In this document: positions 1,713 to 21,551 of the stretch, piece after piece
Layout: each line of letters starts with the position of its first letter
Position numbering within the stretch: the first letter of the stretch is position 1
Source: an uncultured Calditrichaceae bacterium
Lineage (GTDB): Bacteria; Zhuqueibacterota; Zhuqueibacteria; Oceanimicrobiales; Oceanimicrobiaceae
Length of the DNA stretch: 22,572 nucleotides
Direction of reading: 5' to 3'
Assembly (NCBI GenBank): GCA_964629935.1
Contig: CAZVSL010000032.1
Coordinates: forward strand, 1-22,572
Position numbers and translations under genes: made by a program
The notes under the pieces: model-generated
Databases searched by the model: none
Told to the model about the DNA's origin: nothing
What the model saw: only the letters and a program-made list of their open reading frames with translations

Positions 1713-2900
1713 TCAACAGCAATCCGGTCCACAGGCCGGCCCATCGCTGAGCTCCGTGGCGTTGTATTCCATGCCCTTGGTTTCACGCGGATGCCGGCGC
1801 GCGTTTTTGTTGCACGCGAATTGAACCGCTTCTGCTAGCGGAATTTCCTCGCGCGGCGCAACCGCGATGATGTCTTGCGCGTAAGGCGCCTGCTTGTAGA
1901 TGTTGAACGTTTTGTCACACACGGCCATGCGCTCACCGCGGTACAGTGTATGCCCATCGTCATCGATTACTGCTTTCCACGGACCTTTGTAGATCACGGC
2001 CTGGTTACGCTCCAGGCAGGGGCCTTCTTTACCTTTGTAGGCTGTGATGGTGACGGAACGAAATTCAATACCCTCGACGGTCTGCCACGGCTGCTCGTCG
2101 CGCTTTTCGATTTGGATGCCGTAAAATCCGATGTCGGCAAATGCTTGCAGAAATTCATCCTCCCGCAGTGCGCCGGAAATGCAGCCGCTCCAGAGTTCGG
2201 GATCATTTTTCATGTGCGCGGGGACATCTTCGTCCGACACGATGTCCGAAATGGCGACGCGGCCGCCCCTTTTCAGCACGCGGTGGATTTCCTGAAACAA
2301 CTGCTTTTTCGCTTCATCCTTGACAAGATTGAGCACGCAATTGGATACAACCAGGTCGATGGAGCCGTCCGGGATCAACGGGCGCTTGCTGCGCTGCTCC
2401 TCGATGAACTCTTCGTAGGCAATCAGATCAGAGGCGCTTTTGAGTGGATTCTCACGCAAGTACATATCGACGTTATCCAGGCCGAGCTTCAAATCCTCGA
2501 TTTTGCCGCGCCGAAATTCGATATTGTGATAGCCGATGCGGTCGCCTACTTCCTTCTGATACCTGCGTGCGAGCTGCAACATATCTTCGTTCAGGTCGAC
2601 GCCGATAACCTTGCCGTGCGGTCCCACCATCTGCGACACGATATAACAAATTTTGCCTGTGCCGCTGCCTAAATCGAGCACCGTCTCGCCTTCGCGCACG
2701 TAGCGTGAAGGGTCGCCGCAGCCGTAGTCGCGCTCAATGATCTCGCGCGGTATGACCTCCAGATAGCTGGTGTCATATTCTACCGGGCAACACAAGGCCG
2801 TTTCGCGCGCCTGCGCTCCCTGACCGTAACGCTCGCGCACGGCTTTTGCCACGTTGAGTTTTCTGCCATTTGTTTCGTTCTCTTGAACGACCGTACTCAT
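1713..2900 (-). CDS. arsM: Arsenite S-adenosylmethionine methyltransferase (ArsM/AS3MT family)
   Basis: 395 aa. SAM motif I is VLDLGSGTGKICYIVSQ. The characteristic ArsM signature blocks DLVVSNCVLNLV and WSGCISGAL (conserved As-binding Cys residues) are present, plus N-terminal Cys residues (LCCP, YGCGDP). The C-terminal extension is typical of ArsM. An RBS AGAGGA lies 9 nt upstream of the ATG at 2900. Confidence 0.75.
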   Translation of the reverse strand: MSTVVQENETNGRKLNVAKAVRERYGQGAQARETALCCPVEYDTSYLEVIPREIIERDYGCGDPSRYVREGETVLDLGSGTGKICYIVSQMVGPHGKVIGVDLNEDMLQLARRYQKEVGDRIGYHNIEFRRGKIEDLKLGLDNVDMYLRENPLKSASDLIAYEEFIEEQRSKRPLIPDGSIDLVVSNCVLNLVKDEAKKQLFQEIHRVLKRGGRVAISDIVSDEDVPAHMKNDPELWSGCISGALREDEFLQAFADIGFYGIQIEKRDEQPWQTVEGIEFRSVTITAYKGKEGPCLERNQAVIYKGPWKAVIDDDGHTLYRGERMAVCDKTFNIYKQAPYAQDIIAVAPREEIPLAEAVQFACNKNARRHPRETKGMEYNATELSDGPACGPDCC

Positions 2901-5410: not shown

Positions 5411-5434
5411 AAATATGCACGAGTATGCATATTT
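5411..5434. promoter_or_regulatory. Palindromic candidate operator AAATATGCA-N6-TGCATATTT in the promoter region of the FAD-oxidoreductase/arsS/arsM operon
   Basis: Perfect 9-bp inverted arms separated by 6 bp, located 28-51 bp upstream of the operon's first start codon. The half-site TGCATATTT(AGGA) recurs at 6081..6094. Confidence 0.4.
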
Positions 5435-5611
5435 AGGATGCTAAACAGTCCATCGAGCGCGAATATTCCACAGAATATTTCGATTTTAATAATGCCCGGG
5501 TTGATAATTTAACGGGAGAGCATGAAGGAGAAATACAGTATTAGTCAGGGATTAAATAGCCGCAGGATTTGTCCCATGTCGCAGACGACATGGGATTTCA
5601 GACTTCGCGCT

Positions 5612-5827
5612 TCAGAGTTTTGCAAAAATTTCTGCATGGTCCGGGAATCGGCCAAGTTCTTTTTTGGAAAAAATGAGCTTGCCGTCCTTTTTCACTTCGA
5701 ACACCCCGCCAGAGCCTTCAATCAGAGTGACGTCAATATCAGGATGTCGGTTTTCGATGTCTGCCTTCAAACTGGAGGCTTTCGGAAGGTAGTTTCACAT
5801 AACACAGTATTCAATCGAAACGTGCAT
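5612..5827 (-). CDS. SelW/Rdx-family selenoprotein (CxxU motif; in-frame UGA at 5797..5795 read as selenocysteine)
   Basis: Minus-strand translation from the ATG at 5827 (RBS GAGGAGA 6 nt upstream) gives MHVSIEYCVM-U-NYLPKASSLKADIENRHPDIDVTLIEGSGGVFEVKKDGKLIFSKKELGRFPDHAEIFAKL*. The hallmark Rdx features are present: IEYC-xx-U at the N-terminus, GGxFEV and GRFP blocks, and a length of about 71 aa. A hairpin (CCUUC...GAAGG) starts 5 nt after the UGA. The gene was missed by the ORF track because of the UGA. Confidence 0.8.
5764..5789 (-). other. Candidate bacterial SECIS element (stem-loop immediately 3' of the Sec-UGA of the SelW-like gene)
   Basis: On the mRNA: UGA-AACUA-CCUUC-CGAAAGCCUCCAGUUU-GAAGG. 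There is a 5-bp G/C-rich basal stem with additional internal A-U pairs. It lies at the position expected for a bSECIS, within about 10-35 nt downstream of the UGA. Confidence 0.45.
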
Positions 5828-6078
5828 TTCGGTTCTCCTCATGATAAGCACTTTTCCGGATTTTGTCCTTCATGAAAGGTAAGAAGTTTGCGTAAACATG
5901 CAAGCAAATTTCAGGCTTCAGGCGAGCAGGTTCTGAATTCAACCGGCTGGCGATAGCCAGAGAAGAAAGCGCATGCAAAGGAATACCAAATTCCAAACAA
6001 ATTGCGCTTTCGCGCCGGAGGTTAGCTTGGTGGTTCCGCATCAAGCTATCATCTTACGAAGCAGTTTGTAAAGTTTGG

Positions 6079-6107: not shown

Positions 6108-6346
6108 TTTTCGCCTTGTCGGATCGATCCAGCCTTTGGTCTTGATTATTCACAAACTGGTATTTTATGCTCCAAATCGAAATTCTGAGTGTTAAGAGGG
6201 TATGATCGGTGTTGGCGCTTCAGCGTGTCCTCTTCGCTGACTTGTGGCATCACAGACCGCCAGTCCGACCTGCAGCCCGGCAAGAGAGATTCTGAAAACT
6301 AGGTTAATCATCGTAACTGAAACCGTCGTCTGTGGAGGAGAGGAGT

Positions 6347-6799
6347 ATGGATTTTCAACTTGATTATTGGCACTGGCTGGTACTTGGTATGGCGCTGGTC
6401 CTTGCCGAGCTATTCGTGCCGAGTTTTACCATATTCTGGTTTGGCCTGGCGGCGTTTATTGTGGCCGGGTTTATCTGGCTTATGCCTGTGCTTGCCCTGC
6501 CCTGGCAGATTTTTTTGTGGGCCATCACATCGGCCGGGCTCACGGTCGTGTGGTTAAAGGTCTTCAAGCCCAGACTGGGCGACAGGAGAGAGCTCTCCAG
6601 AGAGGCTGTTTTGGGGGAAAGCGGCCATGTTATCCAAACCCAGGTGGAAGACAAGCCCGGTATTGTACGCTTCACAACCCCGCTTCTTGGCTCTGATGAA
6701 TGGCCATTTGTATGTGAGCAAAAGGTTGCCGCCGGCGAACGCGTCTTCGTCAAGGACATCGCCGGCACCACCCTGATTGTGGAAAGCCGAAGTAGCTGA
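6347..6799 (+). CDS. NfeD-family membrane protein (short form, C-terminal OB-fold), partner of an SPFH protein
   Basis: Two or three N-terminal TM helices (LVLGMALVLAELFVPSFTIFWFGLAAFIVAGFIWLMPVLALPW...) are followed by a soluble beta-rich C-terminal domain. A strong RBS GGAGGAGAGGAG precedes the ATG at 6347 (the ORF track starts at an upstream GTG at 6332). It lies immediately upstream of the SPFH gene. Confidence 0.8.
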   Translation: MDFQLDYWHWLVLGMALVLAELFVPSFTIFWFGLAAFIVAGFIWLMPVLALPWQIFLWAITSAGLTVVWLKVFKPRLGDRRELSREAVLGESGHVIQTQVEDKPGIVRFTTPLLGSDEWPFVCEQKVAAGERVFVKDIAGTTLIVESRSS

Positions 6800-6846
6800 T
6801 TCGTTGTATCCAAACTAACAACAAACGTTAAATCCGGAGGGAGTCC

Positions 6847-7701
6847 ATGCAGGGTTATATTCTGGTCACCGTGTTTTTTATTCTTATCGTGGTTACCATC
6901 GCTCTGGGCGTACGCATCGTGCCACAGGGCAGCAAGCATATTGTCCAGCGTCTTGGCCGTTATCACCGCACCCTTGGCCCGGGGCTAAACATCGTTATCC
7001 CATATCTCGATTCCATTGCAGAAAAAGTCACAACCAAGGATATCGTGCTCGACATCCCTTCGCAGGAGGTGATTACGCGCGACAATGCCGTAATCATTGC
7101 CAACGCGGTAGCGTATATCAATATCGTATCGCCGGCGAAATCTGTCTATGGCGTGGAGGACTACCGCGTTGCTATCACTAACCTGGTGCAAACCTCACTG
7201 CGTTCCATTATCGGCGAAATGGATTTGGATGACGCGCTTTCCTCACGCGACAAGATTAAGACCCGGCTCATTGCTGAAACCGCCGATGACATCTCGGACT
7301 GGGGTATCTCGCTCAAAACCGTGGAAATTCAGGACATCAACCCCTCTGAGACCATGCAGCGGGCGATGGAGGAGCAGGCCGCGGCTGAACGTGCACGCCG
7401 GGCCCTGGTGACCCGCGCCGGCGGAGAAAAAGAGGCTGCCATTCTGCAGGCCGAGGGCCGCCTGGAAGCCTCGAAACGCGACGCCCAGGCGCAAGTGGTT
7501 CTGGCCGAAGCCAGTCAGCGTGCCATCCAAAAGGTCACCGAAGCCATTCAGACCAACGAGCTGCCGGTTATGTTTCTGCTTGGCGAAAAGTATCTCGAGG
7601 CCGTGAAGAACGTTGCCAGCTCTGACAACGCAAAGGTTGTTGTGCTGCCAGCAGACATCCAGGCTGCCGTACGGGGCATATTCAGCGCTATAGGTAAATA
7701 G
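6847..7701 (+). CDS. SPFH/band-7 (stomatin/paraslipin-like) family protein
   Basis: 284 aa. It has an N-terminal TM helix, then the SPFH core (IVPQGSKHIVQRLGRYHRTLGPGLNIVIPYLD...), and a C-terminal coiled-coil/Ala-Glu-rich region typical of band-7 proteins. RBS GGAGGGAG. Confidence 0.85.
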   Translation: MQGYILVTVFFILIVVTIALGVRIVPQGSKHIVQRLGRYHRTLGPGLNIVIPYLDSIAEKVTTKDIVLDIPSQEVITRDNAVIIANAVAYINIVSPAKSVYGVEDYRVAITNLVQTSLRSIIGEMDLDDALSSRDKIKTRLIAETADDISDWGISLKTVEIQDINPSETMQRAMEEQAAAERARRALVTRAGGEKEAAILQAEGRLEASKRDAQAQVVLAEASQRAIQKVTEAIQTNELPVMFLLGEKYLEAVKNVASSDNAKVVVLPADIQAAVRGIFSAIGK

Positions 7702-7774
7702 ATTACGTCTCGGTACGGCCACTTTCTATTTATGGCTAAAAATGGTTGAGACAGATGTAAACAGGTGTATTTGA

Positions 7775-7836
7775 ATAAGCAAGGTTCTTGAGAACAAAGT
7801 CAATTACGATTGCAATATACTTCAAGAACTGCTTAT
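7775..7836. promoter_or_regulatory. Imperfect 17-bp inverted repeat (ATAAGCAAGGTTCTTGAG ... CTTCAAGAACTGCTTAT) overlapping a TTGCAA-17-TTATAT promoter directly in front of the methyltransferase gene. It is a candidate autoregulatory operator.
   Basis: Direct reading. The right arm occupies the spacer/-10 of the putative promoter (-35 at 7810..7815, -10 at 7833..7838). Confidence 0.35.
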
Positions 7837-7841
7837 ATTAG

Positions 7842-9044
7842 ATGCAGCTAACGAAAGTTGTAGTTCTAACCATAACTAATCTTAGACTAATAATGCGTTT
7901 CGAGAAAGGTTCTGTCAGAAAAGCTAAGACGTTGACAACAGAATGGATTGCGAATCACTTGTCCCAACATTCTAAATTCATTTCGGTCGGGCTGCCAGAA
8001 TATGACGATAGGCATAATACATGGCGGGTGCCTTTGAATCTTGACAAAGAAAAATCCGTCCTCGTTGGTCAGTTGCAAATCGACCGAGATATATCTCGGA
8101 TCATTGATTCGACCGAAATCCGATTAATCCGGCAAAGAATCGAGAAGAATAAGAACATCAAGACAACTAAGAACTCTACCGCTAAAGGGCTCTTTTATCC
8201 TGCTGCCATACCTAATAAGGTCATTCTTGGGAACTGCATTGATGTATTGGATGAGTTCCCGCCAGATACGGCACAATTGGTTTTTACGTCTCCCCCGTAT
8301 TACAATGCGAAACCTGAGTATTCAGAATATGTCGATTATCAGGAATATCTGGATTTCATGCGGAAATTGATCATAAGAGTTCACGCTATTTTGTCTGAAG
8401 GGCGATTTTTTGTAATCAATATCTCACCTGTGCTGATCAGAAGGACATCTCGTGCAGCATCGAGTAGAAGAATCCCTATTCCTTTTGACTTGCACCGAAT
8501 TTTCGATAGCGTTGGTTTTGATTATATCGATGACATAATCTGGATAAAGCCAGAAGGCGCCGGATGGAATTTGGGTCGTGGCAGAAGGTTCAAGGCGGAT
8601 AGGCAACCTTTGCAATACAAACCCGTTCCGGTAACCGAGTATATCCTTGTTTATAGAAAAAGAACGGACAAACTGATAGATTGGAACATCCGAAAGCACC
8701 ATGACCCTTCGCTCGTTGAAGAGTCTAAGATCACAGGTGATTATGATGTGACAAATGTCTGGCAGATACATCCTGCGTACTCAAGGGTGCATCCGGCAGT
8801 GTTTCCTGAAGAGTTAGCAAGAAGGATAATAATGTATTATTCTTTCAAAGATGATCTGGTCTTGGATCCGTTTGCAGGTATCGGTACAGTTGGCAATGTC
8901 GCATATAGACTGGATAGAAGGTTTTTGCTTGTAGATAACGAGGTCAAGTATTACAGGTATATGAAAGAGACGTTGAGCAACCTCATCCCAATCAACGTTC
9001 GCGTCGATTTTGACATTCATGAGAAATTTAAGAAGAATTCATGA
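7842..9044 (+). CDS. Beta-class DNA amino-methyltransferase (N4-cytosine/N6-adenine; the SPPY motif favours N4mC) with an N-terminal extension of about 110 aa
   Basis: Motif IV TSPPYY comes before the C-terminal motif I DPFAGIGTVG, which is the beta-class order. The typical N-terminal block KVILGNCIDVLDEFPPDTAQLVFTSPPY starts only at about residue 125. The gene is low-GC. An alternative start is the ATG at 7893, and no SD is obvious for either start. Confidence 0.8.
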   Translation: MQLTKVVVLTITNLRLIMRFEKGSVRKAKTLTTEWIANHLSQHSKFISVGLPEYDDRHNTWRVPLNLDKEKSVLVGQLQIDRDISRIIDSTEIRLIRQRIEKNKNIKTTKNSTAKGLFYPAAIPNKVILGNCIDVLDEFPPDTAQLVFTSPPYYNAKPEYSEYVDYQEYLDFMRKLIIRVHAILSEGRFFVINISPVLIRRTSRAASSRRIPIPFDLHRIFDSVGFDYIDDIIWIKPEGAGWNLGRGRRFKADRQPLQYKPVPVTEYILVYRKRTDKLIDWNIRKHHDPSLVEESKITGDYDVTNVWQIHPAYSRVHPAVFPEELARRIIMYYSFKDDLVLDPFAGIGTVGNVAYRLDRRFLLVDNEVKYYRYMKETLSNLIPINVRVDFDIHEKFKKNS

Positions 9045-9985
9045 AGATTGATTACCAGATTGACAGATATCGAGAATGGCTGAATAATAACATAACCTTA
9101 ACCAGCTTATTCTCGCCCGATGCTCTGCGGAAACTTACATACCACCTGTTAATGGGCAGAAATTATCGATTATTGACTGAACCAAATACAAAGGGGCAGC
9201 TTCTAGCCACATTTGTATGGCTCTCAGATATCCAAGAACAGGCAAAAGCCAAGTATAGCTCCGATTGGCTTAAGGCTCTGTTTGACGATATCTATTCAGA
9301 AAAGAGAAAACCGAAAGAGTTACAGAATCTGCTTTTTTGGACTATGGGGTTAACTCAAAAGACGGCAATCAACTTGGGATTGCAAAAAGATGACTATCCC
9401 GAGATACTGGATGAGACAATAGAGTACTTTGGAAAACTGCTCAAGAGTGTCGACAGGGAAGATTTCAAAGACAGTGCATGGTTGCTCTTGATGGCTGGCT
9501 CAGCAACACTGAACATCAGGGGCTCCCAGAAGTCGAAGGTAGGAAAGCAGTTTGAAAGGACCTTCTTGCGGGCTTTGTTGTGCATTCTTGGTTTTGAGGA
9601 AGATACTAACTTCTGGATGAACGTTGGGCGCGACATCGAAGTTGAGAGAGAAGCTGACGCGGAAGTCGAATCCAAGCGGGGCAGAATAAGGATTGAGGTC
9701 GGTTTGATATCATCTGGCAATCAGGAGGTGATAGAAGACAAAATAACACGAGTTGGCCGCAACGGCGTCGTACTGTTCGACAAATTAGGGGCTAAAAGCA
9801 GAGTCTATCAGACCGCGGATAACTATGGGGTTAAATTGGTGCAAATCAGAAACGGCAATCCGTTGTTGGATGTTTTTCGCCATTTGGGACCGCTCGCAAG
9901 GTTTGAATTGAATGTGCCACCAAATACCTCGGAGGAATTGCAGGAAATAGTCAATACACTGCCAGAACAGATATTCACTCTTTAA
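9041..9985 (+). CDS. Putative type II restriction endonuclease partnered with the methyltransferase
   Basis: 314-aa ORF overlapping the methyltransferase stop by 4 bp (ATGA), with the same low GC. A possible PD-(D/E)xK-like segment is GRDIEVEREADAEVESK. The call is by context only; no family was recognised. Confidence 0.45.
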   Translation: MKIDYQIDRYREWLNNNITLTSLFSPDALRKLTYHLLMGRNYRLLTEPNTKGQLLATFVWLSDIQEQAKAKYSSDWLKALFDDIYSEKRKPKELQNLLFWTMGLTQKTAINLGLQKDDYPEILDETIEYFGKLLKSVDREDFKDSAWLLLMAGSATLNIRGSQKSKVGKQFERTFLRALLCILGFEEDTNFWMNVGRDIEVEREADAEVESKRGRIRIEVGLISSGNQEVIEDKITRVGRNGVVLFDKLGAKSRVYQTADNYGVKLVQIRNGNPLLDVFRHLGPLARFELNVPPNTSEELQEIVNTLPEQIFTL

Positions 9986-10009
9986 CTTAGCGATAGCCAA
10001 AACATCAGG

Positions 10010-10375
10010 TCAATGCCCATCGATCTCCACAATATCTATGCCAGAAATCGCGCAGCTCAATAGATGCAGACCGTGAGCATGCCAAAACAGAAACCACTTC
10101 GCTATTTTCTGTCGCAATCTCGAAAAACTTCCCTCTCCGGAGGGACAGCTTTGGGTTCGTCCAGAGTCCAAAGCAGGGTGGGTCAACACCGGCTGCCATT
10201 CACAATGATCAGGCCATTTCGACGATAGCATAAAGGAAACGAAGCTGCCTCCGACGTGCTACGGCTACAGAAACCGATGCGCTAATTTCTGTCGTAATCA
10301 TCAGAATCGACCCATCCATAATTGTAACGGTATCGAGTTTTCCTACTTCGACATCATCGAGATTGATGGCGGACA
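10010..10375. repeat. Structured non-coding element at the island boundary. It has two ~33-bp direct repeats, each an internal hairpin (ACAGAAACC-N-CGCTA-TTTCTGTCG-AATC), at 10087..10119 and 10267..10299. It is bounded by imperfect ~24-bp terminal inverted repeats (10015..10042 / 10347..10373).
   Basis: Direct sequence comparison. Repeat 1 is ACAGAAACCACTTCGCTATTTTCTGTCGCAATC and repeat 2 is ACAGAAACCGATGCGCTAATTTCTGTCGTAATC. The ends are cccATCGATCTCcacaatatctatg versus rc(ttcgacatcatcGAGATTGATGGcg), matching at about 17 of 24 positions. An additional hairpin CCCTCTCCGGAGGG lies at 10130..10143. Confidence 0.35.
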
Positions 10376-20852: not shown

Positions 20853-20889
20853 ACTCAAAAACAAGTAATGAACTACTTTGCAAAAGATA

Positions 20890-21162
20890 ATGCCACCAGT
20901 TTCTCATCCGTTTAAAAAGGGTGCGCTGGTTATTCTAATGAACTATAACGACCATGAGCCGCCACACTGTCATGTGAAGTATCAGAATGACGTGCGGAGT
21001 TTTCGAATTGAGATCAAAACCAAGAAATGGATGGAACCCGGAAGACCCCTTCCCCCAAAACTGCAGAAGATGGTTGTGAGCTGGGTGGAGGCTCATGAAG
21101 AGGATCTATTAGAACAACCGGATAATGCCCGAAATAATCGACCAGTTTCAATCGTGGGGTGA
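20890..21162 (+). CDS. DUF4160-domain protein
   Basis: Hallmark motif NYNDHEPPHCHVKY (NDHxPPHxHV). About 90 aa. Low GC. Confidence 0.75.
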   Translation: MPPVSHPFKKGALVILMNYNDHEPPHCHVKYQNDVRSFRIEIKTKKWMEPGRPLPPKLQKMVVSWVEAHEEDLLEQPDNARNNRPVSIVG

Positions 21163-21551
21163 CTAATATGAAATGGCAAGAGTGGTCAGAAGTGGCCAGG
21201 AATGAGGCTTTGTGGGAAAACCATGAGGAAAAGGGACTGTTGAAAGCAGAGCATGTAAGGGATTATGTGCTGCGTTTGTGGTTTGAAGAATCAATGGACA
21301 TCTCAATCTATGAACTGGACTTTTATCCCTTGATTCTGAAAGAGAATCCCGGAGAGGCTTTACTTCCGTTAAGAGACAAGAATCGCTTTGAGTTCGTTGA
21401 AGGTGACTATACCTTAATATGGCCTAATCCTCAAACCGGCGCCCACGATGAGGAGGCAATTGATCTCGCTCCAGAATGTGTTCGATTCTTCTGTGAGAAA
21501 TATGGAAAAAAGTTAAAGACCCCTGAAGAACCTGTGGCGAATCACGGTTAA
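21159..21551 (+). CDS. DUF2442-domain protein
   Basis: 130 aa. The segments EHVRDYVLRLWFEESMDISIYELDFYPL and WPNPQTGAHDEEAIDLAPE are characteristic of DUF2442. It overlaps the DUF4160 stop by 4 bp (ATGA), and an alternative start is the ATG at 21168 behind GGGGTGA. Confidence 0.75.
   Translation: MTNMKWQEWSEVARNEALWENHEEKGLLKAEHVRDYVLRLWFEESMDISIYELDFYPLILKENPGEALLPLRDKNRFEFVEGDYTLIWPNPQTGAHDEEAIDLAPECVRFFCEKYGKKLKTPEEPVANHG

Follow-up and report, generated by a model that had tools for sequence, protein, structure and literature searches.

Results

A SelW-like gene with an in-frame UGA

We analysed a 22,572-nucleotide (nt) stretch of contig CAZVSL010000032.1 (assembly GCA_964629935.1), hereafter the window, from an uncultured Calditrichaceae bacterium. 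An earlier note on this DNA had proposed that its minus strand holds an unannotated gene for a 71-residue protein of the SelW/Rdx family, read across an internal UGA codon predicted to encode selenocysteine (Sec). Four genes of an arsenic-type cluster follow on the same strand, and the coordinates of all these features are collected in Table 1. Translation of positions 5827 to 5612 gives MHVSIEYCVM, the internal TGA (5797..5795), NYLPKASSLKADIENRHPDIDVTLIEGSGGVFEVKKDGKLIFSKKELGRFPDHAEIFAKL and the terminal stop, and it contains each of the family hallmarks that had been listed, namely a CxxU motif (C8-V-M-U11), GSGGVFEV, and GRFP, while the Shine-Dalgarno-like site described as a good ribosome-binding site lies in front of the ATG. 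With U replaced by C and curated cut-offs applied, the read-through protein scored 76.5 bits against the Pfam profile Rdx PF10262 that the earlier note had named (cut-off 22.6), 66.3 bits against TIGR02174 (cut-off 34.2), and 102.5 bits against NF041051, the 'SelT/SelW/SelH family (seleno)protein' model (cut-off 88), in matches spanning residues 2-70. On these matches the protein is a member of the known Rdx/SelW-like family. It also matches eight solved Rdx-fold chains, including Atu0228 (2fa8, E = 1.2e-8), MIEN1 (2ljk), 3dex, and mouse SelW (2npb), and from these significant matches we infer a thioredoxin-like fold; in these alignments the UGA falls on the second Cys of the CxxC motif, which reads CTQC in Atu0228 and CEPC in MIEN1.

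Conventional gene prediction does not recover this gene. The open reading frame (ORF) list of the window gives only an in-frame 52-residue C-terminal fragment (5612..5770, with a TTG start at 5770), together with an antisense 117-residue ORF (5522..5875) and an out-of-frame 77-residue ORF (5811..6044), the latter two of which returned no match in a Pfam search. Two public contigs identical to this region (L081 and L082) have no gene called between the NfeD gene and the flavoprotein gene. Because codon 11 is UGA, the gene has been overlooked by gene callers. A sigma-70-like match at 5869..5841 occurs at a frequency expected by chance and abuts the ribosome-binding site, and so we do not claim it as a promoter.

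Conservation of the UGA at codon 11

When one genome per species was scanned, 80 loci with SelW-like homologs were recovered, which span KSB1, Calditrichota, Gemmatimonadota, Planctomycetota, Marinimicrobia, Latescibacterota, and Krumholzibacteriia. Each of them has TGA at the aligned position, with conserved protein sequence on either side, and the codon is also kept in four loci reached independently via the radical SAM (S-adenosylmethionine) or flavoprotein genes (L083, L084, L085, and L089), for a total of 84 of 84 relatives. Upstream of the UGA, residues I5, Y7, and C8 are invariant (C8 in 81 of 81 sequences) with synonymous variation at the third base, and Ser4 is encoded by both TCN and AGY codons. 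In 80 of 81 sequences a start codon precedes the UGA by exactly ten codons, and 52 of the 81 homologs have a Shine-Dalgarno-like motif at -20..-4. To judge from these patterns, the ten codons 5′ of the UGA behave as coding sequence. The ratio of nonsynonymous to synonymous substitution rates (dN/dS) for the read-through frame against relatives was 0.06-0.17 wherever dS was not saturated.

If the UGA were instead a real stop, the locus would be a pseudogene or a truncated gene, encoding at most a 10-residue peptide or the 52-residue fragment that starts at the TTG. The ORF list and public gene callers, which give this fragment or nothing, accord with such a reading, as does the weakness of the local hairpin described below, but the conservation of the UGA across several phyla, the fixed start codon, the protein-like evolution of the preceding codons, and the low dN/dS all speak against it. 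Furthermore, the 52-residue fragment would lose the catalytic Cys8, and the family is a documented selenoprotein family. The earlier note had reasoned that relatives terminating at this position would indicate a pseudogene; given that the UGA is kept in every relative and that both flanks evolve as protein, we regard this explanation as very unlikely.

A further alternative is that the UGA is read through without selenium, either under a reassigned code, with UGA as Trp or Gly, or by near-cognate suppression that places Trp or Cys at position 11. Many public homologs are indeed translated with W at this position, and the genes of the Sec machinery were assessed here within the window. Among the best 120 matches in protein databases, every 'full-length' SelW-like homolog has W at the Sec site and the remainder are truncations of 52-55 residues, with no Cys-containing close homologs. 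However, W at this site represents the same UGA, since these are gene calls made under genetic code 4 on short contigs, and the W calls are therefore artefacts. TGA also serves as the ordinary stop codon in 12 of the 20 genes called with confidence in the window, among them the SelW-like gene itself and the ArsM-like gene downstream, which indicates that the organism uses the standard code and that the event at codon 11 would be position-specific recoding. Moreover, position 11 corresponds to the second, redox-active Cys/Sec of the motif shared by the family, and codon 11 is followed by a structure-constrained hairpin with an invariant loop G. Read-through without selenium is thus highly improbable. 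A scan of the window for other genes with TGA read-through returned no convincing candidate for a second selenoprotein.

The same misreading recurs across public databases, where many SelW-like copies either have Trp at the Sec site or are cut to 52-53 residues. Fourteen of the proteins that we retrieved (P0001-P0014) and many other public SelW-like proteins have Trp at the Sec position, and some also read through the terminal TGA. Such calls amount to a systematic mis-annotation of the SelW-like family, which stems from code-4 calling of short contigs. For annotation, the locus thus illustrates what is very probably a genuine gene that standard callers miss or mistranslate.

A conserved hairpin downstream of the UGA

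The earlier note had placed the Sec insertion sequence (SECIS) in a stem beginning 5 nt after the UGA. RNAfold indeed predicts this stem, but folding of the post-UGA 66-mer alone gave -8.1 kcal/mol, which does not differ from shuffled sequences (z = -0.12). Single-sequence folding carried no signal, and the informative approach was comparative. It identified a 17-nt hairpin that begins 15 nt after the UGA, with stem arms at 5779..5773 and 5769..5763 and the family-wide form GCCNCCA-GUU-UGGNGGC. Across 81 homologs, 90.4% of cells are paired in this register, compared to at most 48.6% for every slid register, and there are 45 double-change cells against 19.4 +/- 2.5 in shuffles. Changes to both partners occur at four of the seven pairs. 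Pair 25:35 takes the form U-A in 35 sequences and G-C in 31, pair 24:36 joins two synonymous third positions and takes six pair types, and four sequences with a Ser-to-Phe change (UCC to UUC) regain pairing with the A of AAG. The first loop base (alignment column 29) is G in 81 of 81 sequences, and the next base is U or G.

Within the 16-17-sequence subgroup to which the window belongs, the 17-nt hairpin is identical save for one A/C position. All five codons of the hairpin (codons 17-21) are restricted to a single codon each, as against just 2 of the roughly 40 conserved degenerate positions elsewhere (hypergeometric estimate ~1.5e-5). The C.A mismatch in the window's stem is conserved in the subgroup and therefore looks like a feature rather than decay. 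Published criteria for bacterial SECIS (bSECIS) elements specify a loop of 3-9 nt, an upper stem of 4-16 base pairs (bp), a G in the first two loop positions, a distance of 16-37 nt from UGA to loop, and a minimum free energy (MFE) of -7.5 kcal/mol or lower (PMC13188914). The window hairpin agrees with the first four, having a 3-nt GUU loop that begins with G, a 7-bp stem, and 22 nt between UGA and loop (columns 7-28).

Predicted selenocysteine insertion at codon 11

We consider it very probable that positions 5827..5612 of the minus strand are a functional gene for a 71-residue SelW-like selenoprotein, expressed by the following mechanism. Translation would start at the ATG at 5827, behind the Shine-Dalgarno site, and codon 11 would be read as Sec instead of stop. 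The 17-nt hairpin 5779..5763, with its GUU loop 15 nt downstream, would recruit SelB carrying Sec-tRNA(Sec); both Sec insertion and SelB binding are predictions from the comparative data. This recoding would be specific to its position, because at codon 72 of the same mRNA a UGA serves as an ordinary stop. In the thioredoxin-fold product, Cys8-x-x-Sec11 would cycle between selenenylsulfide and thiol/selenol forms, as in a small oxidoreductase. The host therefore probably decodes UGA as Sec, a conclusion that the comparative evidence supports well, if indirectly, and the gene marks this uncultured KSB1/Calditrichota-like organism as a probable Sec user.

Several observations weigh against this interpretation. 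First, the window hairpin misses the stability criterion for bSECIS elements, with -5.3 kcal/mol in context and -3.8 kcal/mol for the 17-mer alone; relatives with perfect stems reach -8.3 to -12.0 kcal/mol. Second, in the window sequence an alternative fold that is not conserved has slightly greater stability (-6.3 versus -5.3 kcal/mol; pair probability 0.78 versus 0.21). This fold combines the stem proposed in the earlier note, CUaCCUUC/GAAGGcAG, with an inner AAGC/GUUU helix, and its preference would favour that stem as the SECIS. The 5-nt stem nevertheless performs no better than shuffles, pairs in 61% of cells across the 81 homologs (equal to shuffled and slid controls), hinges on one Leu codon choice, and competes with the conserved hairpin for the same 3′ arm. 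We therefore set aside the original placement, whose chance of being the SECIS we judge small, and take the marginal thermodynamic preference for it to be a structural caveat rather than evidence for function. Lastly, selA, selB, selC, selD, and tRNA-Sec were not found within the window, which is a public contig over its whole length of 22,572 nt and in which ARAGORN detected no tRNA gene and Rfam gave no match at the gathering threshold; ARAGORN likewise found no tRNA-Sec in 40 relative loci.

Neighbouring genes and other features of the window

The earlier note had described the SelW-like gene as lying directly upstream of an ArsS-family radical SAM gene and on the same strand as an arsenic-methylation cluster. 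The last of these statements is borne out by a syntenic ArsM-like gene on the minus strand, but the 422-residue flavoprotein gene lies between the SelW-like and radical SAM genes, and the assignment to ArsS was not upheld (Table 1).

Table 1 Features of the SelW-like locus and the adjoining gene cluster
Feature	Position	Strand	Description and basis
SelW-like (Rdx family) selenoprotein, predicted coding sequence	5612..5827	minus	71 codons plus TGA stop (5614..5612); translation, profile matches
In-frame UGA, codon 11, predicted Sec of CVMU (CxxU)	5795..5797	minus	TGA in aligned relatives
Shine-Dalgarno-like GAGGAGA	5834..5840	minus	6 nt upstream of ATG at 5827; direct reading
Conserved SECIS-like hairpin GCCUCCA-GUU-UGAAGGC	5763..5779	minus	7-bp stem with one C.A mismatch, loop 5772..5770; covariation
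10-bp hairpin TCCCATGTCG-TCTG-CGACATGGGA	5572..5595	minus	17 nt after SelW-like stop; perfect stem, no U-tract
Palindrome ATATGCA-N6-TGCATAT, putative operator	5413..5432	minus	About 30 nt upstream of flavoprotein gene
NAD(P)H flavoprotein, 422 residues	4115..5383	minus	Pfam Pyr_redox_2/3; TrxR/YpdA-like fold, no CxxC, invariant C330 and C353
Radical SAM protein, 322 residues	3150..4118	minus	CNLWCTHC and C-terminal Cys cluster; neither ArsS nor ArsL
ArsM-like SAM methyltransferase, 395 residues	1713..2900	minus	Conserved arsenic-binding cysteines; aligns with CmArsM (4kw7)
Metallophosphoesterase, 264 residues	861..1655	minus	Pfam Metallophos_2; last gene of the cluster

The flavoprotein carries FAD and NAD(P)H Rossmann motifs. 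Its AlphaFold model (predicted local distance difference test score 90.8) has its best match in the Protein Data Bank to the bacillithiol disulfide reductase Bdr/YpdA (7a76, TM-score 0.83 on the target), followed by ferredoxin/flavodoxin reductases of the thioredoxin reductase (TrxR) type (FNR) and by thioredoxin reductases. Its stop codon overlaps the start of the radical SAM gene, the product of which has a C-terminal Cys cluster of the SPASM/twitch type. Tested as ArsS, this protein scored 57.6 bits on TIGR04167, far below the cut-off of 300, in a match confined to the radical SAM core (residues 37-183), whereas a true ArsS that adjoins a related ArsM (locus L101) scored 441.7 bits. It was likewise rejected as an ArsL on the grounds of length, motif position, and Cys content.

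In the ArsM-like protein, C37/38, C61 (YGCG), C188 (SNC), and C240 (SGC) are invariant in six homologs. We label it ArsM-like because it falls below the cut-offs of both NF040538 (383 against 500) and PRK11873 (200.8 against 263). Its C-terminus is a conserved Cys-rich tail, ACGPDCC (1713..1733), which is followed immediately by a TGA; this codon was considered as a C-terminal Sec, but relatives end in TAA or TAG there and it is a true stop. Copies of the metallophosphoesterase with 63-75% identity adjoin the radical SAM gene in both layouts of the cluster.

The hairpin that follows the SelW-like stop, whose region folds at -21.5 kcal/mol (z = -1.6), is a possible terminator or RNA end. Hairpins after the stop are not consistently present in relatives, and this one is not conserved.

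Elsewhere in the window, the plus strand carries a type II restriction-modification pair, in which an N6/N4 DNA methyltransferase gene (7842..9044) overlaps a gene for a CfrBI-family restriction endonuclease (9041..9985), beside an NfeD-Band7 pair (6332..7701). Neither restriction-modification gene has a relative in the 80 genome loci, and so the pair may be a mobile insertion. Farther along the same strand, a DUF4160 gene (20878..21162) overlaps a 130-residue ORF with no Pfam match (21159..21551), and the two may form a two-gene module.

Conservation of the gene cluster

Within the clade of the window, the order SelW-like, flavoprotein, radical SAM, ArsM-like, and phosphoesterase gene recurs in seven of the loci found with the SelW-like protein (L002, L003, L004, L006, L008, L009, and L010) and in the four reached via the radical SAM or flavoprotein genes (L083, L084, L085, and L089). 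Upstream of the SelW-like gene, the genes differ in every syntenic locus. Of the 13 clusters that contain an ArsM-like gene, 12 have the SelW-like gene upstream of the flavoprotein gene, with L090 as the exception, and none of the five clusters that have no ArsM-like gene (L086, L087, L088, L091, and L092) carries it. The four-gene cluster of flavoprotein, radical SAM, ArsM-like, and phosphoesterase genes is conserved, apparently undescribed, and widespread in uncultured KSB1, Caldithrix, and Ignavibacteria; its core is the radical SAM-phosphoesterase pair, and the ArsM-like gene occurs in one clade only. We also considered a link between SelW-like and arsenic genes across the whole family and rejected it, as the 80 SelW-like genes have diverse neighbours (PFK, PAS, UbiA, SIS/CBS, LuxE, and DEAD helicases, among others).

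The flavoprotein and radical SAM genes are fused in several independent contigs into a single gene for a protein of about 730 residues (L002 5286-7511, and proteins P0264, P0265, and P0276, with L089 768-2957 and L090 7001-9205). These fusions suggest that the flavoprotein feeds electrons to the radical SAM cluster.

The palindrome in front of the flavoprotein gene is also found at the corresponding place in L002 (5228-5247), L006 (8412-8431), L008 (2176-2195), L009 (4725-4744), L010 (4647-4666), L083 (6697-6716), L084 (6696-6715), and L090 (6953-6972). It is probably an operator for a dimeric regulator, and its conservation suggests that the four downstream genes have their own regulated promoter. 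The half-site resembles NsrR-type Rrf2 sites. An Rrf2-family gene adjoins the cluster in L083, and no regulator gene was found in the window. PHO4/PitA-like phosphate/sulfate permeases are encoded in or beside some ArsM-containing clusters (L084 9003-10127 and L094 3-599), which is consistent with the handling of an oxyanion such as arsenate.

Sister clusters have a different small protein at the same site. In L086 (9781-10110), L088 (9817-10146), and L094 (1982-2308), a gene for an AhpD/CMD protein of 108-109 residues with a CPYC motif lies directly upstream of a gene for a homolog of the window's flavoprotein (38-40% identity), and the AhpD/CMD protein matches TIGR04169, the 'arsenosugar biosynthesis-associated peroxidase-like protein'. 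The NCBIfam model NF041537 describes ArsM/AhpD-domain fusion selenoproteins with CxxU. On the basis of these sister clusters and fusions, a small CxxC/CxxU protein beside a TrxR-like flavoprotein is a recurring element of arsenic clusters with radical SAM and ArsM genes.

Scanning metagenomes with the ArsM-like protein yielded 66 loci, none of which contains a SelW-like gene. Where a locus is long enough to judge, a different radical SAM gene follows the ArsM gene in most cases; in L101, the sole one tested, ArsM (6720-7778) is followed by the true ArsS (7956-10207), and the pair lies just downstream of prfB. The cluster in the window thus pairs an ArsM of the arsenosugar/arsinothricin type with a different radical SAM enzyme. 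A literature search found no paper describing a cluster of radical SAM, metallophosphoesterase, and ArsM genes.

Discussion

A possible role of the SelW-like protein

Only one aspect of this locus could lead somewhere new, namely the conserved placement of the SelW-like gene at the head of an arsenic-type cluster that is uncharacterised. In this clade, the protein could be a small redox carrier for the adjacent, separately promoted cluster: the flavoprotein, with NAD(P)H, would keep it reduced, and it would pass the reducing equivalents to the arsenic-methylating chemistry. We regard a functional partnership of this kind as possible but doubtful. Equally tentative are the more specific proposals that the flavoprotein, the radical SAM enzyme, the ArsM-type methyltransferase, and the metallophosphoesterase make up an organoarsenical pathway that has not been described, and that the SelW-like protein is its dedicated redox carrier, a non-homologous replacement of the AhpD-like TIGR04169 protein, for which it may stand in.

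Several comparative findings weigh against such a partnership and would fit a stand-alone housekeeping redox gene whose adjacency to the cluster is inherited synteny with no functional coupling. Across the whole family, the neighbours of the SelW-like gene are diverse both upstream and downstream, and L002, L003, and L009 have unrelated genes inserted between the SelW-like and flavoprotein genes. The closest homolog of the SelW-like gene, in L001, has no cluster downstream, and the linkage is also missing in L090. The conserved putative operator, and with it a separate promoter region, divides the SelW-like gene from the cluster, and the fusions imply that the flavoprotein is tied first to the radical SAM enzyme and not to SelW. 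Furthermore, all linked loci belong to one clade, so that the counts given above are not independent and may reflect common descent. On the other hand, the linkage holds in nearly all ArsM-containing clusters although the upstream genes change from locus to locus, a non-homologous CxxC protein occupies the same place in sister clusters upstream of a homologous flavoprotein gene, and ArsM/AhpD-CxxU fusion selenoproteins exist. On balance, we put the chances that the gene stands alone at about even. Were the partnership real, it would give bacterial SelW-like proteins, which have been without a known role since they were described in 2004-2005, their first functional context, and the recurrence of the gene at the head of the cluster, with an AhpD-like CxxC protein at the same site elsewhere, yields a concrete hypothesis for these abundant proteins.

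Comparison with known systems

Bacterial SelW-like CxxU selenoproteins were described in 2004-2005 and were the top selenoprotein family by abundance in the Sargasso Sea data, in which their SECIS elements had an apical loop that was small and included a G (PMC1088965). They have few Cys homologs (PMC1794560), and their function is still listed as unknown (PMC13188914). The protein studied here agrees with them in its length class, its N-terminal CxxU, its GGxFEV and GRFP motifs, and its scores above all three curated cut-offs, and it is also alike in the small hairpin after the UGA with a G in the apical loop and in the scarcity of Cys forms among close relatives. We see no essential difference, apart from a hairpin that carries a conserved C.A mismatch and lies below the usual stability threshold. 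A literature search did not find the uncultured KSB1/Calditrichota-like lineage or an arsenic-type neighbourhood described for the SelW-like family.

The hairpin also resembles the E. coli fdhF-type SECIS and the bSECIS consensus of Zhang and Gladyshev, in that it is located in the coding sequence shortly behind the UGA, has a 3-nt loop starting with G-U on a 7-bp stem, and leaves 22 nt between the UGA and the loop. It differs from the consensus in its MFE, which is weaker than required, and SelB binding is putative here. The minimal element of fdhF lies 11 nt from the UGA and contains a bulged U, whereas the window hairpin has a 15-nt spacer and an internal C.A mismatch as its irregularity.

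Thioredoxin and thioredoxin reductase genes occur in ars operons (arsX/arsT), and ArsM and AS3MT need thioredoxin in vitro. The locus in the window is similar in placing a thioredoxin-fold protein and a TrxR-like NAD(P)H flavoprotein beside arsenic genes. However, its flavoprotein has no CxxC and is closer in fold to YpdA/Bdr and the TrxR-type FNR, and its small protein would be an Rdx-family selenoprotein and not a thioredoxin.

The systems represented by TIGR04169 and NF041537 likewise have a small redox module with CxxC or CxxU that is physically linked to arsenic genes of the ArsM and radical SAM kinds, and in the TIGR04169 clusters the AhpD-like gene holds the place of the SelW-like gene upstream of the flavoprotein homolog. 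AhpD is all-helical and not homologous to Rdx, and the analogy is therefore positional and chemical only.

Lastly, the cluster can be compared with the ArsS and ArsM pair of arsenosugar synthesis and the ArsL and ArsM pair of arsinothricin synthesis, in both of which, as in the window, a radical SAM gene adjoins a gene for an ArsM-type enzyme with four catalytic cysteines. The ArsM-like protein is closest to NF040538, and its own relatives usually lie beside a true ArsS, but the radical SAM protein of the window fails the ArsS model. It also differs in length, in motif position, and in its extra Cys cluster from BgArsL, which has 428 residues and its motif at residues 194-201 (PMC8552651). In contrast to both pairs, the radical SAM gene in the window is placed upstream of ArsM, is translationally coupled to a flavoprotein gene or fused with it, and is accompanied by a metallophosphoesterase, so that the cluster looks like a third kind of radical SAM and ArsM pairing besides the arsenosugar and arsinothricin ones.

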